The translations under genes and the position numbers were made by a program. DNA of 64,000 nt from positions 70,295-134,294 of IMG/VR virus record IMGVR_UViG_3300021387_000199, one strand, 5' to 3'. The number at the start of each line of letters is the position of its first letter. Position 1 is the first letter of the stretch. Below the pieces are notes generated by a model. The model was not told the DNA's origin. It did not search any database and saw only the letters and a list, made by a program, of their open reading frames with translations. Origin of the DNA: a virus. Taxonomy: Duplodnaviria > Caudoviricetes. This document shows positions 42,643 through 62,159 of this stretch, piece by piece.

Positions 42643-43002
42643 GTGAAGAAAACAGATATAGAAGAATTAAGAGAATATAGAAACCTTAAAGCTTCAGGCC
42701 GCCTCCTGATTATCCCTGAGGGGATGAAAGATGGAGATACGGTCTGGACTTTTAGCGTTGAAGATGGAAGAGTGTCTTCGCACATGATTATTGAGTGGGT
42801 TGTTGTAACCGGCAGACTATTTGGAAAGATCGCTCTTGACGATGATTACTCTTTGTTCTCTCCGGACGATATAGGGAAAACGGTATTCCCTACGAAAGAG
42901 GCGGCAGAAGAAATGTTGGCCTTTAGGACGAAGCAAGTAGAAGATTTCGCCGACACGATGCCTGAGCCTCAGGAGAAGGAGTACGAAGTATGTTGGTCAT
43001 AA
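42643..43002 (+). CDS. hypothetical phage protein
   Basis: IGKTVFPTKEAAE motif common in phage accessory proteins. Confidence 0.6.
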   Translation: MKKTDIEELREYRNLKASGRLLIIPEGMKDGDTVWTFSVEDGRVSSHMIIEWVVVTGRLFGKIALDDDYSLFSPDDIGKTVFPTKEAAEEMLAFRTKQVEDFADTMPEPQEKEYEVCWS

Positions 43003-47693: not shown

Positions 47694-48401
47694 GTACCTG
47701 AAGGAGGAAAAAAATAATGAGAGTACTGAAGTTACTGATATATACGTGTTTAATTGGCGCGGCGCTGGCTTTTGTCCCCAAGCTGCTCAGGCCGAAGAAG
47801 TATCACACAATACCTTGGAGGACTTATGAGAGAGAAGATTCCTGAGTTCAGGGTAAGGCCGGGAGTTACCAAACATCAACTTTACCAGGCCGGTTTTACA
47901 GACGAAGGAGATCACTGGACTTATCAACAGTTTCTATATGAAAGATTTGTTTTAGTCAAAATCCTAATCTCTAAAGAAGATTTCTTTTGTACGGCAAAGA
48001 TTATAAGAACAGACACCGGTGGTTTTTACTCAGCGTTTTATAACACGATATTTGGGCCAAGGAATCTGGTAGCTGAAAAGGTGACAGAAAGATATTGCCG
48101 ACTGCTCAGGAGACTTAATAGAGCCGACGTGATTGAGTTTGTAGAGGAGAAGAATAAAGTACATGATTGATTGGCATTATTGCAAGGATGAGTTGCCGAA
48201 GAAATCTGGAAAATATTTGGTTAGTAAGTTAGGGGTTTGGTCGAACGTTGATGAGAAATACGTTTTGTATGACGAGGAATTTCGTCAGGTTGAGATAGCT
48301 CTATTTGTCGTCGACATAGGATTATTCGATACCAGACATCCAAAAAGTGTCTATGCCTGGGCAGAACGACCAAACCCGGCGAAATACTAAGTGCCGAGGA
48401 T

Positions 48402-48433
48402 GAGGGCTTAATCAGCTCAGGTTTTGAGAAATA
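48402..48433 (+). promoter_or_regulatory. phage-specific bipartite promoter, copy 5, upstream of the tRNA
   Basis: GAGGGCTT-N15-TGAGAAATA. Confidence 0.7.
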
Positions 48434-48479
48434 GGTATTGAGAGGAGGGCAACATGGTTTCGACAGAAACTATCCTCTC

Positions 48480-48552
48480 CGCCCCGTCTTCTAGTGGTCA
48501 AGGAAAATGGGCCCTAACCCCATGAACGTGGGTTCGAACCCCACCGGGGTGA
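48480..48552 (+). tRNA. amber suppressor tRNA (anticodon CUA) with a tRNA-Glu-type body; CCA not encoded
   Basis: acceptor CGCCCCG/CGGGGTG, D arm TTCT-AGTGGTCAA-GGAA, anticodon stem ATGGG/CCCAT with loop CC-CTA-AC, variable region GAAC, T arm GTGGG-TTCGAAC-CCCAC. Confidence 0.9.
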
Positions 48553-50760: not shown

Positions 50761-52461
50761 TGAGCATAAAAAGAGGGTTGCGCCGTGAAACTTGCATTAT
50801 GGAGGATGCGCCGATGATCAGTTACGACAATTTCATTATGGCTCTTGGGGCTACTGATGATGAGGAAATAAAAGAGGAAAATAGGAGACTCTGCGAAAGA
50901 TATCCATTCCTGAAGTATCACAGTCAGTGGGGAAATGAAGATCTTCAGGGGTACGATTATGACTTCACCTACCTCGATGACATTCCGCGTGGCTGGAAGA
51001 AAGCTTTCGGCGTTCAGATGTGCGAGGAGTTGAGAGAGATTTTGATCGAAGGAGGCTATCTTGACGAATATCAAGTAGTTCAGGCGAAGGAGAAATATGG
51101 CCGACTCTGTTGGTATGACAACGGAGTCCCGGATTCAATCTGGGATAAATACCGGGACTGGCTGAACAAATACGAAGATCTTTCAGAAAAGACCTGTATC
51201 GGCTGCGGAAAACCCGCCACCATGAGAATCGATGGCTGGGTTAGTCCCTGGTGTGACGAGTGTTATGAGGCCTAACCGCTAACAGAATTAAGAATATGGA
51301 TCTGAAAAGGAGAAATACTTATGGACAGAAAACTGGCAGATGAAATATACAGCTATCTGGTTGAGTGTGGCCAGAATGATCACGGGAAATTTAAGTTCGG
51401 GGAGATGATCAAATATACGCCATCTGAAATACAAGATCTTCTATACCAGATGCCGACTCATGCCGAAAAACCTCCCCTTGGCATCTATCCTTATTGGATA
51501 GCTTACGGGGAAAGGATTAAGGATCTTGCCGGAGCCATCATTCGGTATTCAGATAGATTAACTAATGAAACGGATACTATCAGGCTCTGGGCTAAGGAAA
51601 TCGAAGAGCTATGTGATGTGGCTGACTACCTGAGTAATTAAGAACGGAGGAAAGATATGGCTAAAGATAATGAGAAGTTTACAAGAGATGACTCGGCGCT
51701 TCTTGATTTGGTATATCAGAATCTTGTCGCGATTTCTGATGAGATCAAGACGGAGCCGGACAATCCGAAGTTGATCGACGCTTTCGATTCGCTCCTGTCA
51801 ACATATTTCGATATTCAGGAGGATTTTTAATGAAGTTAATTGACGCGGATGACTTGAAGGTTAACTTAGGCCATTACCCGATGCTAACGGGACTAATGAT
51901 TAGGATGTTCACGAGGATAATCAACGAACAGGAAGAAGTGCCGGTTCCGGGGATTACAAAAGGCCGCTGGATCCCATCCCCGGGTGAAGGGTATGAGTGT
52001 TCCAGATGTTGGGGAATTTCAAAGATGCCCGGACGATTCTGCCCTACATGTGGAAGTCAGAATAGTTTGGAGCGTAATGATGAATAAGGAAGAAGCTATT
52101 GAAGCCCTGAACGAGGGAATAAGCTTCTGGGGTAGAGTTTTAGGAAAATTCAAACAGACAAGTTACTGGTTCAGGGAAGGAAAGAAAAGAATTGAAGTAT
52201 CCCGGCTGGCTATAGAAGCCATACGGGAATCTCTGGAAAGAGAGAAAGGGGAAAACGATGAAAGAGAAGGAGAGAATTGAGTACCGCGAGAAAATCGATC
52301 AGCTTAACGATCTTCATAAAAGACTTGCTGGCGTTGAAGAAGATTACTCTCAGTTCAAAGCAAAGCCGGAAGATCTCGACCTGATCCGTTACGCACTCGT
52401 CCAGACATCGGCGTTGCTGAATTTGCTTCTGGATTCAGAAGAAGAGGAGTCCGGCATATGA
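50757..52461 (+). other. cluster of small hypothetical genes
   Basis: consecutive ORFs. Confidence 0.6.
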
Positions 52462-52559
52462 CGTTCTGGTTCGATACCCATTGGGGAGACGCGTGTTTCA
52501 TAGTTCTGCTCGCCATTGTTGCTTGGTGTATCTATAGATCATCGTAAAGGAGGAACATA

Positions 52560-54806
52560 TTGAGGACATTACTGATTTTCAGGGGATCCCCAGGTTGCGG
52601 AAAATCTACGTTCATCGCGAAGAATTACCTTACGCCGTACACTCTCTGCCCGGACACGATCAGGCAGCAGTTACAGGGATGGGTTCAGCTGCCAGATGGT
52701 AAGCTGGGTATTTCCGGTAAGAACGAGAAGAAGACCTGGGAGATCCTTTTTGATTGCCTTGAGCGCCGTATGCAGAACGGCAGTTTCACGGTAATAGACG
52801 CGACGAGTTCTAAAGCCACTGAAATGAACAAGTATAAGAAGTTGGCCGACGACTATAAGTACCGGATCTTCTGCGTAGACATGACAGATGTACCGATCGA
52901 CGAGTGCAAGCGTAGGAACCGACTGAGGGCTGAGTATAAACAGGTGCCGGATGAGACGATCGACAAGATGTACTCCAGATTTGCCACTCAGAAGATCCCG
53001 TCTGGTATCAAAGTGATAAAGCCTGAAGAACTGGATTCCATCTGGCTTCAGGAATTCGATCTTTCTTCCTATAAGAAGATCTGCGTGATCGGCGATGTTC
53101 ACGGTTGTTATTCAGCGCTGTCTAACTACATCGGGGAAATCTGTGATGATTATTTTTACATCTTTGTCGGCGACTACTTCGACAGAGGAATTGAGAACGC
53201 CGCCGTATTTCGATTCATTCAGGAACATATAGACAAGAAGAACTTCCTTTTCCTTGAAGGTAATCACGAGAGACATCTGAAGGATTACGGGGAGAATAGG
53301 CAGTCCAGATCGTGGGTGTTCAATAGTCTGACAGCGAAAGAGTTTAGCGAAGCCGGCATTTCCCGGGTAGCCGCCAGAAAGATGTACCATCGCTTCGGTC
53401 AGGTGGCTTGGATCAAGTACGGTGATAAACATTTCATAATCTCACACGGCGGATTAGCCCGCTGCCTGACAACAGGAATCGCGTTCACTAAGACCTGTAC
53501 AGATCAGTTCATAGCCGGCGTTGGACAGTATGCCGACATGGATCTGTGCGCTGAGTCTTTCTCTAAGACCTGTCCCGACAATTACTATCAGATCTTCGGA
53601 CATAGGAACATCATAGAGTCTCCTGTTCAGGTTGACAATCACAACTACTGCCTTGAGGGTCAGGTTGAATTTGGCAAGTACCTTCGCTGTGTAGAAATCT
53701 CTGAAGTGGGAACTAAAACCATAGAAACAAAGAACGACGTCTGGAGGCCCCTCCCTGAAGAGAAGAAAGAGGATGTGGTTCCTACTAAAACGGCTACTAC
53801 GGTAGAAGACTTCGTGAACTGGGCGAGGAAGAACCGTCGGTCTGTAATAGAGAAGAAATTTGTTCTTCAGGAAGGATCCGACAGTGAAGGCCACATTTCC
53901 TCGTTCAACTTTAGCCGTACCGCTTTCGAGAAAGGTGTCTGGAATAATATCACGACCAGAGCCCGCGGATTGTTCATCGACACCGACAAAAAGACGGTGT
54001 TTGCCAGATCGTACGACAAGTTCTTTAAGACCAATGAAGTCGACGCCACGAAGGAAGAAGCTCTGAGGCAGAACTTGAAGTTCCCAGTCACAGCGTATAA
54101 GAAGTACAACGGCTATCTGCTTCTGGCTTGCTACAATCCGTATCAGGATCGAATTGAAGTCGCCAGTAAATCCACCTTCGATGGGCCATTCGCGGAAAAC
54201 GGTAGAGCTGAGTTGTTGAGGCTTCTTTGTGAAAACGGCACGTATGATTATTTCAAGCAGTATCTGAAGGAACTGAACGTGACAGCGGTGTTTGAGTACG
54301 TAGATATAGAACGCGACCCCCATGTCGTAGAAGCCGAGAAGAGCCAGTTGATCCTTCTCGATCTTGTTTGCAACAAGCTAGAGTTTGAGAAGATTTTTTA
54401 CGACAGCCTTGTGGGACTTTCTAAGAACGTCGGCATCCCGTGTAAGGAAGTGGCCTGTACGTTCAATTCCTGGCGCGAGTATTACGACTTCTATAGAACT
54501 GAGAGAGACAAGGAGATTCCTTATAGAAATCTTCCGGTTTCAGAGCAGTACGAAGGATACGTTCTCGAAGACGCCACCGGATTCCAGTGGAAGCTGAAAT
54601 CGAATTACTACAACTTCTGGAAGTCGATGAGGTTCGTACTGAAGTCGTGTGTAAAGAAAGGCTACGTAGACAACACCAGCGGGCTCACGACACCTCTGGC
54701 GAATGATTTCTACGCTTTCTGTAGAGGATATTACGGCAAGGAGGATCCGCCGGCAGACATTATTTCCGCAAGAAAAGAGTTTTATGGATTAAGCGACAAG
54801 CGCTGA
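52560..54806 (+). CDS. polynucleotide kinase / metallophosphoesterase / RNA ligase fusion (RNA repair)
   Basis: GSPGCGKS; GDVHG, GDYFDRG, GNHE; ARGLF, DKFF, KYNG (ligase motif I), EGYV. Confidence 0.85.
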   Translation: MRTLLIFRGSPGCGKSTFIAKNYLTPYTLCPDTIRQQLQGWVQLPDGKLGISGKNEKKTWEILFDCLERRMQNGSFTVIDATSSKATEMNKYKKLADDYKYRIFCVDMTDVPIDECKRRNRLRAEYKQVPDETIDKMYSRFATQKIPSGIKVIKPEELDSIWLQEFDLSSYKKICVIGDVHGCYSALSNYIGEICDDYFYIFVGDYFDRGIENAAVFRFIQEHIDKKNFLFLEGNHERHLKDYGENRQSRSWVFNSLTAKEFSEAGISRVAARKMYHRFGQVAWIKYGDKHFIISHGGLARCLTTGIAFTKTCTDQFIAGVGQYADMDLCAESFSKTCPDNYYQIFGHRNIIESPVQVDNHNYCLEGQVEFGKYLRCVEISEVGTKTIETKNDVWRPLPEEKKEDVVPTKTATTVEDFVNWARKNRRSVIEKKFVLQEGSDSEGHISSFNFSRTAFEKGVWNNITTRARGLFIDTDKKTVFARSYDKFFKTNEVDATKEEALRQNLKFPVTAYKKYNGYLLLACYNPYQDRIEVASKSTFDGPFAENGRAELLRLLCENGTYDYFKQYLKELNVTAVFEYVDIERDPHVVEAEKSQLILLDLVCNKLEFEKIFYDSLVGLSKNVGIPCKEVACTFNSWREYYDFYRTERDKEIPYRNLPVSEQYEGYVLEDATGFQWKLKSNYYNFWKSMRFVLKSCVKKGYVDNTSGLTTPLANDFYAFCRGYYGKEDPPADIISARKEFYGLSDKR

Positions 54807-54864: not shown

Positions 54865-56097
54865 ATGTAGAACTTCAACGAATTCAAGGAATTATTGCAA
54901 CTGGTAACCGGGGATGATAAAATGTCTGTGGCTGATATCGAACGACTGCAACTTGCTCAAGAAAGGAGTTCGATATTGAAACAACATACCCACAAGATTT
55001 GGGAGTCAGGAGGTTATTTTAACACATATATCCCAGACCCTTCTGCTAAAAGAGGGTACCGTCTCAAAAGGAGCCGTACAAGAGAGGGATTAGAAGAAGC
55101 AATAATAAGGCAACACAAAGAAAATGAAGCAAATCCGACGATTGACGAAGTATTCGAAGAGTGGAACAACAAAAAGCTCGAAAACGGAAGTATCGTAGAA
55201 GCAACACATCTCAGGAATAAATATTGTTACGAAAGACACTTCGGTGAATTTGGCAAAAGAAGAATCAGGAACGTTCGTCCCGTAGAATTCCAAGATTTCT
55301 TAGAATCACAGATCAAAATACATCATATGAAAGCCAGGGGTTTTGCTAATCTGAAGGGAATAGTAAGAGGTTTTCTGAAGAGGGCGAAAAAGAATGGCTA
55401 CATTTCCTTCAGCGTAGAAGAAATGCTCAATGATATGGACGTTACTGATCGGCAATTCAATAGGAATCGAAAAAGGGATGACGAAGAAATCTTCTATGAT
55501 GATGAGTTAGACAGAATCATCGAAGCGATTAGGGAAGCCCCTTATCCCAATAACCTGGCTGTAGCGCTGATGTTTGGAACCGGAATGAGGGTTGGGGAAG
55601 TAGTTGCCTTGAAACATTCAGATTTTCATGGAATGTCGGTCACTATCCAGAGATCTGAAACCCGCTATAGGATGCCCGATGGGAAGTACAATTACCTGAT
55701 TCAGGATCATCCTAAGACAGAGGCCGGCTTTCGTACCATTGTCATTCCAGATAGTTTTAAATGGGTTGTGGACAAGCTGAAAACAAGCAACCCGTTTGGG
55801 GAATGGGTATTCGTAAAAAGGGATGGAAAAACCAGAATAACCACGAACACTATCCGTACAAGGATCAGAAGCTTGTGTAAAGAACTGGACATTCCTATTA
55901 GATCATCCCATAAGATCAGAAAAACATATGGTTCAATTCTTCTGGACAGCAATCTTGATTCAAAGTTCATTCAGAGTCAGATGGGCCATGCCAGTATTCA
56001 GATTACAGAAAACTTTTATCACAAAGATAGGCGCAGAATCGACCAGAAATCGCGCATTATCAATTCTGTGGAAGCTTTCAAAAAAAGTGCAATCTGA
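54865..56097 (+). CDS. int: tyrosine integrase; the second codon is TAG
   Basis: RBS AAGGAGG + ATG TAG AAC in frame; TGMRVGE; HKIRKTY; MGH..I..T..FY. Confidence 0.9.
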
Positions 56098-57914: not shown

Positions 57915-59660
57915 TCAATCTCTTCGATTACGAATCGCATATAAGAGAACCAGAAGAACCCCGAATGAGACAAGGACTGAATAGACAAGGCGGGATATAG
58001 GTGTCTAATCGCCGGTCTTAGGCGGTTTCAGCGGGGTGGTAGTAGCGGTCGGCTTCGATATAGATTGAGAAAATCTTGAGGTAGTACCCTTTACATCCTG
58101 ACGTTTTCTGCTGTTCCCACGTACCCCTGAATCGTCGTCATCTTCATCGTTGCCCTAATCCGAATTATCCTCATCTCTATAGTCCTTGCTCCAATCGGCT
58201 ATCTTATACTCCTGTCCTTTCTTAAAATAGATTTCAGATTCTTCCTCTTCTTCAGGCTCTTTTTCGTCCTACCAGTATTCTGACTATTCAATTTCCGATT
58301 CGGGTCTATACATTTCCGATTCGCTTTCAGATTCGATCTCTGACTCAGACTCCGATTCCGATTCTTCTTCAGTTTCAGTCTAAATCTAAGACTCTTCTTC
58401 GATTTCCGTCTCGGATTCTTCCTATGTCTCGGTTTCTTCGGTTTCAACTTCGGTTTCTATATATTCTTCGGTTTCCGTCTCTATCTCGGTTTCCGTTTCT
58501 ATCCATTTTTCCGTTTCTGTCTCGGACTATATTTCAGTTATCAGTTCAGTCTCTTCAGTCTCAACCTATTCCGTTTCTGTCTACTCGGTTTCTATCGACT
58601 AAGTCTCAGTTTCTTCAGTTTCCGGCTCTTCGGGTTCCTGAATAGATCTATAAGGCCACATGTGACCCTATCCATAGGTTGACACGTTCCAGCCAAGCAG
58701 ACAGCCGTTCGTGTTTCCGCCTTTTACTTCAATGTTAGCGTAAGGCGCTATAATACAGCCTATTTCAGGCGTGAGTTCTGTAGGTACGACGACCCCCTCG
58801 GCGTAAGGATACGTAATACAGATCGGTTCAGACCCGGCGTTTTCTTCGCCCTGGGACAGCCCTACAACCTGAGGATTAGGAACGGTTCCTGAATCGAGAA
58901 CATTGATCACTGTAGTTTCCCCGGTATATTCGCCGGTTAGTCGGATTTTACAATAATTACCGCCCAGTATCACGTTGGTGATAGTTCCCCTCTGAATTTC
59001 GACCTACTGCCAAGACCACTGGATCCTGATAGGCTCAGCTCCAGCCGAGAGTTCCTGAACATAATCGATGGTATCAACGGCGGAAGCGTAGACCCACGCC
59101 CAGGATATGTATTCGTCCGATATAAAGATCGGATCACCATGGCTATAGTTGACTATCCCGTTCAGGGTAGTACCGTCTACGGTATTAGAAGAGCCTACAT
59201 ATAGCGGTACCCCGCTATACTTCGACCTTCCGTTAGGGCCGCCGGGTTTACTCACATAGCCGCCGATGTAGCTTGGTTCGTTTATATAAGGGGTGTCAGC
59301 AAAGTTATTAGTATTACCGGACAGATTCCCCCTGACAAGGAGACTGCCCATACAGTGTTGCTCTATATCAGCTGAACCGAAAGCTATTACCCCGAAACTG
59401 TTCAGGAGATAATCAAGATCGTAGTAACCCTGATAATAACCGTCAGTTTCCGCCGGGTATTCTTCGATTAGTCCGCCATAGTTTTCAATAATATTATCCT
59501 AATCTAATTCTGTTTCTGGAGAGTAGTCGACATATTCCCCGTCATAGTCTGGCACGATGATGTCGTCCTATGCGTCCGCAGAGATAAAGTACCTGAAGAG
59601 AGAGAAGAGTAGAAGAGCCGCCACCAAGTAAATGATTGCCGTTATTTTATTCTTCCCCAT
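57915..59660 (-). CDS. cell-wall-anchored protein: signal peptide, choice-of-anchor-A-like domain, E/T/S stalk, PKTGD sorting signal; 15 in-frame TAG
   Basis: 582 codons with no internal TAA/TGA; IIAPYA...G*GHMWPY; PKTGD*TP, then TM, then RNRR. Confidence 0.85.
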
Positions 59661-59684
59661 AGCAACCACCTCCTTTCAATGTTA

Positions 59685-59932: not shown

Positions 59933-60313
59933 TCAATCTCTTTTCGGCGGTTCAGTTGGCAGTCCAACAATCTTATGTGAGATCTGCTAAATTATACCAT
60001 TTCCATTATCCCGCCTATAAGCCTCATAGAGCGCATGATACACCTACCTCTAATCGACCGAGTAGAAGCCTTTAGAAATACAATTTTGGTAATTATTCAA
60101 TAGCATTGTGCGAGCCATGCCCAATGTCAGCTGATCGTTGGCCTCGTTTCTAATACGTTGCTTCTCAGCCTCCATTGCTTCTTTCTCTTCGCGTTCTTTG
60201 CGATATTTGGTATTGTTTTCGTCCCAGGTTTTCAATTTGTGTGTTATCATCGCCGTCAAAACTGAAACTAAGATCCCCATACATGTTGAGAGGATCGCGC
60301 TAAATATAGACAT
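59933..60313 (-). CDS. holin-associated/lysis-region membrane protein, 3 in-frame TAG
   Basis: RBS AAGGAGG; N-terminal TM; KGFYSVD*R*VYHALYEAYRRDNGNGII*QI...LP matches the phage LYxAY..xGNG family. Confidence 0.7.
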
Positions 60314-60370
60314 ATCAAATACCTCCTTCAAATAAAAAGAAGACCGGGCGTTAACCCGGCCTCTCACCAA

Positions 60371-61935: not shown

Positions 61936-62157
61936 TCAATTTTTCAGAAGTTCTAAAACTTCCTCAACGGTCTTGCCGGAATCCTTGAACGCCGCCATGA
62001 GCGTCTTTATTTTCTCGGCCTCTTTCTCTTTCAGGAGATCTTTGAGTTCAGCTTTCTTTTCTTTGATCGTCTCGCTGAGTTCCTGAATTTCTGCTTCGAC
62101 CTGTTCGATCCTCTGGTCTATAGTAAGGTCGACTTTCTTTTTGCGTCCTCTTGGCAT
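61936..62157 (-). CDS. small coiled-coil protein
   Basis: RBS GAGGAGG; MPRGRKK...SGKTVEEVL. Confidence 0.7.
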   Translation of the reverse strand: MPRGRKKKVDLTIDQRIEQVEAEIQELSETIKEKKAELKDLLKEKEAEKIKTLMAAFKDSGKTVEEVLELLKN

Positions 62158-62159
62158 GG

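Follow-up and report, generated by a model that had tools for sequence, protein, structure and literature searches.

A tRNA gene with the anticodon CUA at positions 48480–48552 (plus strand) raises the question of which amino acid a phage inserts at UAG and whether this gene is responsible for the insertion. The window analysed here is a stretch of 64,000 nucleotides that forms the final 64 kb of one phage contig of 134,294 bp, estimated to be 83% complete, and it is present in cattle, goat and sheep gut metagenomes of several studies. The gene is probably a functional amber-suppressor tRNA by which the phage reads UAG as glutamate, in a genome whose packaging, head, lysis and other minus-strand genes contain in-frame TAGs, about 187 in all, with the behaviour of Glu codons.

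The 73-nt gene is the sole tRNA found by ARAGORN in the window and the sole Rfam family match on either strand of the 64 kb (RF00005, E = 7e-8, 50.5 bits where the gathering score is 29), and its minimum-energy fold is an exact cloverleaf; conservation in four metagenome runs and covariation, described below, reinforce the assignment. The 5′ acceptor strand CGCCCCG, which together with U8 and C9 occupies 48480–48488, pairs with 48545–48551 to form C1-G72, G2·U71, C3-G70, C4-G69, C5-G68, C6-G67 and G7-C66. The D arm (48489–48505) displays the stem UUCU/GGAA, formed by U10-A25, U11-A24, C12-G23 and U13·G22, and a 9-nt loop (AGUGGUCAA) that holds GG, and it is followed by A26. The anticodon stem extends from A27-U43 to G31-C39 and presents the loop C32 C33 C34 U35 A36 A37 C38 (48512–48518), with C33 at 48513 and CUA at 48514–48516. 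The variable region GAAC (G44 A45 A46 C48; 48524–48527) comprises 4 nt and is devoid of position 47, the T loop reads UUCGAAC, and the discriminator is A73 (48552), 3′ of which no CCA is encoded. The features listed in the initial annotation (the cloverleaf, CTA at 48514–48516, U11-A24, U13-G22, A46, GAAC without 47, A37-C38 and C1-G72) are all present in the sequence, and C33, G2·U71, C9, U10-A25, the 9-nt D loop and A73 lay outside that list. ARAGORN labels the gene 'Pyl', a label based on the anticodon alone. In genuine tRNA-Pyl, the partner of PylRS, the fold is atypical and the G18-G19 and T-psi-C motifs are missing; this reading was rejected since the window tRNA carries both the D-loop GG and the T loop UUCGAAC. 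Directly upstream stands a small conserved plus-strand ORF of about 75 aa (48163–48390), recognized by tblastn and in the ORF listing. No sigma-70-like promoter was seen upstream of the tRNA, and a promoter and terminator scan around the gene gave nothing useful.

The tRNA is embedded in an early-type plus-strand block that encodes guanylate kinase, NrdD/NrdG (anaerobic ribonucleotide reductase), dUTPase, polynucleotide kinase/RNA ligase and integrase and is almost without TAG. The late-type block lies on the minus strand, extends over 56.4–64 kb of the window and from position 1 to about 60 kb of the genome, and displays many in-frame TAGs in genes for the portal, terminase, endolysin, a PhoH-like protein and an exonuclease, as well as in a 6,811-aa frame with 83 TAGs (genome 2248–22683, minus strand, outside the window). 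The share of TAG in the sum of TAG, GAA and GAG is 11.7–15.6% in minus-strand genes (187 TAGs) versus 1.3% in the plus-strand block. The client genes within the window, all on the minus strand, are a cysteine desulfurase (Aminotran_5, P0003; 56742–57890) with 5 in-frame TAGs, an adhesin-like protein with an acidic E/T repeat (57915–59669) with 15, and genes at 59933–60370, 62048–62500 and 62947–63264 with 3, 7 and 3, respectively. The plus-strand block closes with a 748-aa polynucleotide kinase/phosphatase-RNA ligase fusion (52560–54806, +), an enzyme of the type that repairs tRNA, and the neighbouring integrase (54895–56097, +), and the latter suggests a temperate lifestyle for the phage.

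The meaning of TAG was read from the residues found at the same alignment columns in homologues. The phage relatives comprised 80 loci fetched with the terminase, nearly all of which use the standard code. Phage proteins from the protein database were left out of the TAG columns because some had been called with code 15, as the public record of the cysteine desulfurase must have been since it shows Q at all five TAG sites. At the TAG sites of the window phage the codons of its relatives are dominated by GAA (34%), followed by GAT (14%), GAG (9%) and AAA (7%). This is the profile observed at the phage's own GAG and GAA codons and is unlike that at its CAG and CAA codons, where the relatives carry CAA and CAG at 15–23% each. 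A calibrated test, in which each of 36 TAG columns was counted once and the residue profiles were derived from the same alignments, returned Glu as the best meaning, with Asp at −14.9, Gln at −23.8 and Lys at −26.5 ln units; such columns give the dominant meaning of TAG and are compatible with a minor share of another residue. Asp and Lys were rejected as TAG meanings on this likelihood, and the alignment of TAG with Gln in standard-code relatives that identifies code 15 is not what these columns display. Control sets of the same size, drawn from true E, Q, K, D, N, S and T columns, were each assigned correctly in 300 of 300 cases. The mean frequency of E is 0.413 in TAG columns and 0.405 in true E columns (p = 0.87), and TAG columns differ from Q columns (p = 6e-10). 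At the five positions where the cysteine desulfurase has TAG, E, D and K predominate in about 100 cellular homologues, with E commonest or second commonest and Q rare. The TAG of the endolysin aligns with the catalytic Glu of GH73, as located in FlgJ structures. The suppressor fits the TAG=Glu code derived from the proteins, as had been proposed for it, and the Glu reading passes three independent tests: the column test, the acceptor-end search with a free anticodon and the match between tRNA type and code among recoded relatives, the latter two described below. In the adhesin-like protein (57915–59669, minus strand) the TAGs fall within the acidic E/T repeat at positions where E is expected (ETE-X patterns), and these would lend database-free support to TAG=Glu.

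Two of the 80 relatives are themselves recoded. By the same column test TAG is Glu in G048 (41 columns; Asp −17.5, Gln −21.6) and Gln in G001 (IMGVR_UViG_3300021255_002052; 38 columns; Met −23.2, Glu −23.5). Both meanings of TAG thus occur in one phage family, and the column test separates them.

To trace the ancestry of the tRNA body, about 120 Clostridia genomes were drawn on for comparison; they supplied 24 distinct genes for tRNA-Glu and 14 for tRNA-Gln. Clostridia were taken as the reference group because kin of the phage were found in Clostridia assemblies. Sequence profiles with the anticodon masked give Glu a slight lead (Glu 13.7, His 11.8, Gln 9.3 bits), and since such sequence-only profiles were too weak to decide the isotype, a position-by-position comparison and a search for the acceptor class were used. 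BLAST with the 73-nt tRNA returned the generic T arm or nothing from 49 related phage records, GenBank phages searched in near and distant modes and four Clostridia assemblies. Position by position, the window tRNA shares with Clostridia tRNA-Glu the G2·U71 pair (G2-C71 in tRNA-Gln), C3, C4 and C5 (G3 and G4 in tRNA-Gln), U11-A24 (C11-G24), A73 (G73) and the 4-nt variable loop (5 nt), the last of which is found in 23 of the 24 tRNA-Glu and in none of the 14 tRNA-Gln references. U35, A37 and A46 without position 47 are likewise common to the window tRNA and tRNA-Glu, as is a D loop of at least 8 nt (9 nt here, 8 nt in tRNA-Glu, 7 nt in tRNA-Gln). In bits for Glu against Gln, the acceptor stem with position 73 contributes 32 and the D stem 9, and the variable loop and the size of the D loop are likewise Glu-type. 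Negative scores, in contrast, come from the anticodon arm (−24 bits), the T arm (−9 bits) and positions 8, 9 and 26 (−6 bits). By the standard of Clostridia, C9 and the stems of the anticodon and T arms do not resemble tRNA-Glu, the C1-G72 pair is of neither type (G1-C72 in tRNA-Glu, U1-A72 in tRNA-Gln), and the window tRNA further departs from Clostridia tRNA-Glu in having C9 rather than G9, U10-A25 rather than G10-C25, C33 and A36, and in lacking A13·A22 and the CCGCC/GGCGG-type anticodon stem. Against the Clostridia references the suppressor is thus a mosaic.

A pattern that ignores the anticodon, with C1, G2, C3–C6, U8, C9, the T loop and GGGGUGA at 67–73 fixed, retrieved 12 phage tRNAs from IMG/VR, of which 11 are tRNA-Glu genes (ten UUC and one CUC; eight distinct sequences) and one is a CUA suppressor, that of G048; a search of 401 Bacillota genomes did not recover the pattern. 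The four nearest of 462 collected tRNAs, compared with the anticodon masked, are similarly all tRNA-Glu, the best at 72% identity. The 12-member class, when aligned, has 97.6% of its cells in pairs and double changes at 12 pairs; its observed score was not attained by any of 500 shuffles. The result of the anticodon-free search identifies C1-G72 and C9 as marks of a phage tRNA-Glu class. C1-G72 is present in all 12 members, and its interpretation as a special adaptation of suppressors was rejected on that ground. The window tRNA displays the C1-G72, G2·U71, C3–C6/G67–G70, U8, C9 and A73 of the class with CUA in place of the Glu anticodon (UUC or CUC), and is best regarded as a CUA suppressor derivative of the phage tRNA-Glu class rather than a reader of Glu codons. 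With the 11 phage tRNA-Glu genes it shares the acceptor end and the short variable region (4 nt in most members), U13·G22 in most members and, with one CUC member, also C33, whereas its anticodon and its anticodon and T stems differ and overall identity is only 55–72%. The proposed origin of the suppressor from a tRNA-Glu body is borne out by this class, whose acceptor end is otherwise carried by phage tRNA-Glu genes and one further CUA suppressor. Its postulated derivation from tRNA-Glu(CUC) by a single change was not upheld: the search for a precursor one step away found none, identity to the nearest tRNA-Glu is about 72%, and the anticodon stem, the T stem and C9 are unlike those of Clostridia tRNA-Glu. 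The C33-bearing CUC member of the class (L211) is the sole hint towards a CUC ancestor, and the suppressor lineage has since diverged in both lower stems, those of the anticodon and T arms.

The type of the tRNA matches the meaning of TAG in the three testable recoded phages (three of three). The suppressor of G048, in which TAG is Glu, belongs to the same class as the window tRNA, and the 91–92-nt CUA tRNA of G001 (L102:730–821), in which TAG is Gln, displays G73, C11-G24, a 7-nt D loop and an extra arm of about 22 nt. A scan of metagenomes for CUA members of the class recovered two more suppressors, L213, which is 74% identical to the window tRNA and shares with it the D arm and, letter for letter, the variable loop, and L212, which is 85% identical to that of G048. 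The suppressors differ mainly in the anticodon and T stems, and do so through compensating double changes. The small ORF located upstream of the window tRNA also stands upstream of the L213 suppressor (43% identity over 69 aa at 48166–48372, tblastn). One L212 protein with 11 TAGs has two homologues only, and no other gene of L212 or L213 matched the material compared. The hairpin of the extra arm of the G001 tRNA contains UUUGA, resembling a Gln anticodon loop.

The combination of C1-G72 and A73 raised Pro as a possible meaning of TAG; this was rejected, as the protein columns do not show Pro and ProRS relies on G35 and G36. The determinants of E. coli GluRS comprise a major set (U11-A24, U13-G22:A46 and the absence of position 47), a strong set (U34, U35, C36 and A37) and a weak set (G1-C72 and U2-A71) (PMC9976931). 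The window tRNA carries all of the major set. In the strong set U35 and A37 are kept while C34 and A36 differ, U34 and C36 being the two strongest determinants that a suppressor must give up. At the positions of the weak set it displays C1-G72 and G2·U71, the latter being the state of Clostridia tRNA-Glu. The initial annotation had taken U11-A24, U13-G22:A46 and the missing position 47 as the bacterial tRNA-Glu identity set; these match the E. coli set (PMC9976931), but the 24 Clostridia tRNA-Glu references have A13·A22 in place of U13-G22, so that the claim holds in part. The GlnRS/tRNA-Gln set is G73, U1-A72, G2-C71, G3-C70, G10, G36 and U38 (PMC9976931), and at these positions the window tRNA displays A73, C1-G72, G2·U71, C3-G70, U10, A36 and C38, so that only U35 and A37 are shared with tRNA-Gln. 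The amidotransferase GatCAB relies on the U1-A72 pair (PMC9976931), for which the window tRNA has C1-G72. The earlier argument that GatCAB would leave the charged tRNA as Glu stands as far as the absence of U1-A72 is concerned, but it is relevant only in hosts without GlnRS, and of the four Clostridia assemblies with phage kin three encode GlnRS and all four GatB. Discrimination between GluRS and GlnRS is for that reason the more likely relevant step, and rejection by GlnRS is probably the one that matters for the window tRNA. From these elements we infer that host GluRS charges the window tRNA with Glu. Neither a class-I GluRS/GlnRS catalytic domain nor a release-factor domain is encoded on the contig, of which the missing part, at 83% completeness, could hold either; the earlier remark that no synthetase or release factor is visible in the window thus extends contig-wide to GluRS/GlnRS-type synthetases and release-factor domains.

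The following sequence of events would account for the data. The tRNA would be transcribed with the plus-strand nucleotide-metabolism block around it and would receive its CCA from the host. Host GluRS would then charge it with Glu through the Glu-type acceptor helix, the augmented D helix and the missing position 47, with U35 and A37 kept and A36 tolerated. GlnRS would reject it for want of U1-A72, G2-C71, G3-C70, G10 and G73, and in a host without GlnRS the lack of U1-A72 would lead GatCAB to reject it as well. The charged tRNA would compete with host RF1 at UAG, and from this competition it is proposed that full-length products of the TAG-rich late genes would have to await the tRNA. The location of the tRNA in a standard-code block, with TAG-rich packaging, head and lysis genes as its clients, would fit the published idea of late-expression gating. 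At the level of the family, we lean, with little more than even confidence, towards a scheme in which the meaning of UAG was set at least twice (Glu and Gln) within one large Clostridia-type phage family, each suppressor being derived from a different phage tRNA lineage and the residue being decided by the acceptor end alone (C1-G72/G2·U71/A73 for Glu, G73 for Gln).

Mixed decoding, in which mainly Glu is inserted while noticeable mischarging, with Gln by GlnRS through U35 or with Lys by LysRS through U35 and A73, renders TAG ambiguous, is quite improbable. CUA anticodons attract GlnRS and LysRS in E. coli, a synthetic E. coli tRNA-Glu amber suppressor is said to insert some Gln besides Glu, and C33 and A36 may lower the efficiency of GluRS. 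Among the TAG columns themselves K is the consensus in 5 of 36, compared with 8% of true E columns. Taken together, however, the TAG columns are indistinguishable from E columns, Q and K trailing by 24 and 27 ln units, a catalytic Glu (GH73) is encoded by TAG, and all GlnRS determinants of the acceptor and D stems are absent from the window tRNA.

C33 takes the place of the U that forms the U-turn of the anticodon, and decoding may be weaker as a result. All 147 Clostridia tRNAs examined carry U33, as do 300 of 317 distinct phage tRNAs. The remaining 17 of the 317 distinct ARAGORN-called phage tRNAs (about 5%) mostly carry C33, some perhaps as mis-framed calls. The three suppressors other than the window tRNA have U33, and C33 recurs in the loop CCCUCAA of L211, the sole tRNA-Glu(CUC) of the class. 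A gene that is weak or dead through C33 or another defect, with TAG being read by a tRNA from the host, from a co-infecting phage or from an unassembled part of the genome, is thinkable given that C33 occurs in none of the 147 Clostridia tRNAs, that published surveys find recoded phages without any suppressor gene and that the contig is 83% complete. Conservation argues against such a defect. Across four runs from four studies a single difference falls within the 73 nt, 48495 T>C at D-loop position 16, present in two of the four runs, whereas the upstream flank of about 130 nt (48327–48456) displays about ten variable sites in the same runs; C33 and CTA are invariant in all four. The tRNA is thus a real, constrained gene, beyond chance, and C33 is a real, conserved peculiarity of its lineage. 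In addition, the gene is the sole CUA tRNA on the contig, its cloverleaf is intact, a homologous suppressor occupies a syntenic place in another phage, and the phage tRNAs without U33 include the tRNA-Glu(CUC) of the same class. U33 is not essential for amber suppression in yeast, according to published work. An inactive decoder is, on these grounds, very improbable.

Ordinary code 15, with Gln inserted and TAG being Glu-like only because the TAGs arose from GAG at tolerant sites, agrees with all published phage TAG reassignments and with the Q that the public protein record of the phage shows at TAG but is scarcely credible, since columns that show the ancestral residue at tolerant sites should display weak Glu conservation and instead match true E columns (E at 80% or more in 32% of TAG columns and 26% of true E columns, with Q-consensus columns equally rare at both), the same test returns Q for G001 and so can detect Gln, TAG encodes the GH73 catalytic Glu, and G73, U1-A72, G2-C71, G3-C70 and G10 are missing from the window tRNA.

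Recoding of a stop codon by a phage suppressor tRNA is already known. The survey of recoded phages observed only TAG to Gln and TGA to Trp in phages with a code unlike that of their host, and the papers on Lak, phAss-1 and the 2026 jumbo phages all use TAG=Gln. A full-text literature search found no claim of an amber-to-Glu code in phages, and TAG=Glu seems to be absent from the literature searched. The window phage resembles the code-15 phages (the crAss-like, Lak and phAss-1 group; 10.1101/2021.08.26.457843, PMC9523058, PMC8346664, PMC10607447) in its phage-borne CUA tRNA, the lack of a dedicated synthetase and a host that presumably uses the standard code, and also in keeping the standard code for replication and nucleotide metabolism and concentrating TAG in genes for structure, packaging and lysis. 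It differs in the residue, Glu rather than Gln, and in the origin of the suppressor, from tRNA-Glu where theirs derive from tRNA-Gln. Two precedents for the pairing of amber with Glu exist outside phages. The synthetic E. coli tRNA-Glu amber suppressor of Kleina, Normanly, Abelson and Miller (1990) reportedly inserted mainly Glu, which would mean that GluRS can tolerate the anticodon change; it combines, like the window gene, a tRNA-Glu body with CUA, but is a laboratory construct and not a natural gene that supports a recoded gene set. The nuclear code of peritrich ciliates (NCBI table 30) reads TAA and TAG as Glu; TAG is glutamate in both systems, but the ciliate code is eukaryotic, nuclear and genome-wide, includes TAA and is not set against a host with the standard code.

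If the reading is correct, TAG=Glu would be a natural, phage-private genetic code new to the literature, with the C1-G72 tRNA-Glu class as its phage-specific scaffold, accepted by host GluRS and ignored by GlnRS and GatCAB. A Glu-reading amber code would add to the natural codes of phages and would indicate that phages can co-opt more than one host synthetase. The assumption TAG=Gln is built into gene callers and databases, so that phage proteins would be unreliable at TAG positions wherever TAG is Glu; translation as Q would misread the TAG-encoded GH73 catalytic Glu of the endolysin. Related phages with TAG=Glu and TAG=Gln would provide a matched natural pair for studying how the acceptor end of a tRNA sets the code, and the tRNA class may serve as a Glu-inserting amber suppressor.

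Further tRNA-like genes are located on the minus strand of the genome outside the window. A cluster at genome positions 52428–53607 comprises tRNA-like genes, several of which have a common CGGAACG acceptor, with anticodon loops that are 6-nt or otherwise irregular and Rfam scores of 43–55 bits. At 42743–42815 a tRNA with the Gln anticodon UUG displays U11-A24, U13·G22, a 4-nt variable loop, A1-U72 and G73, and would thus appear to combine a Glu-like body with a Gln anticodon.
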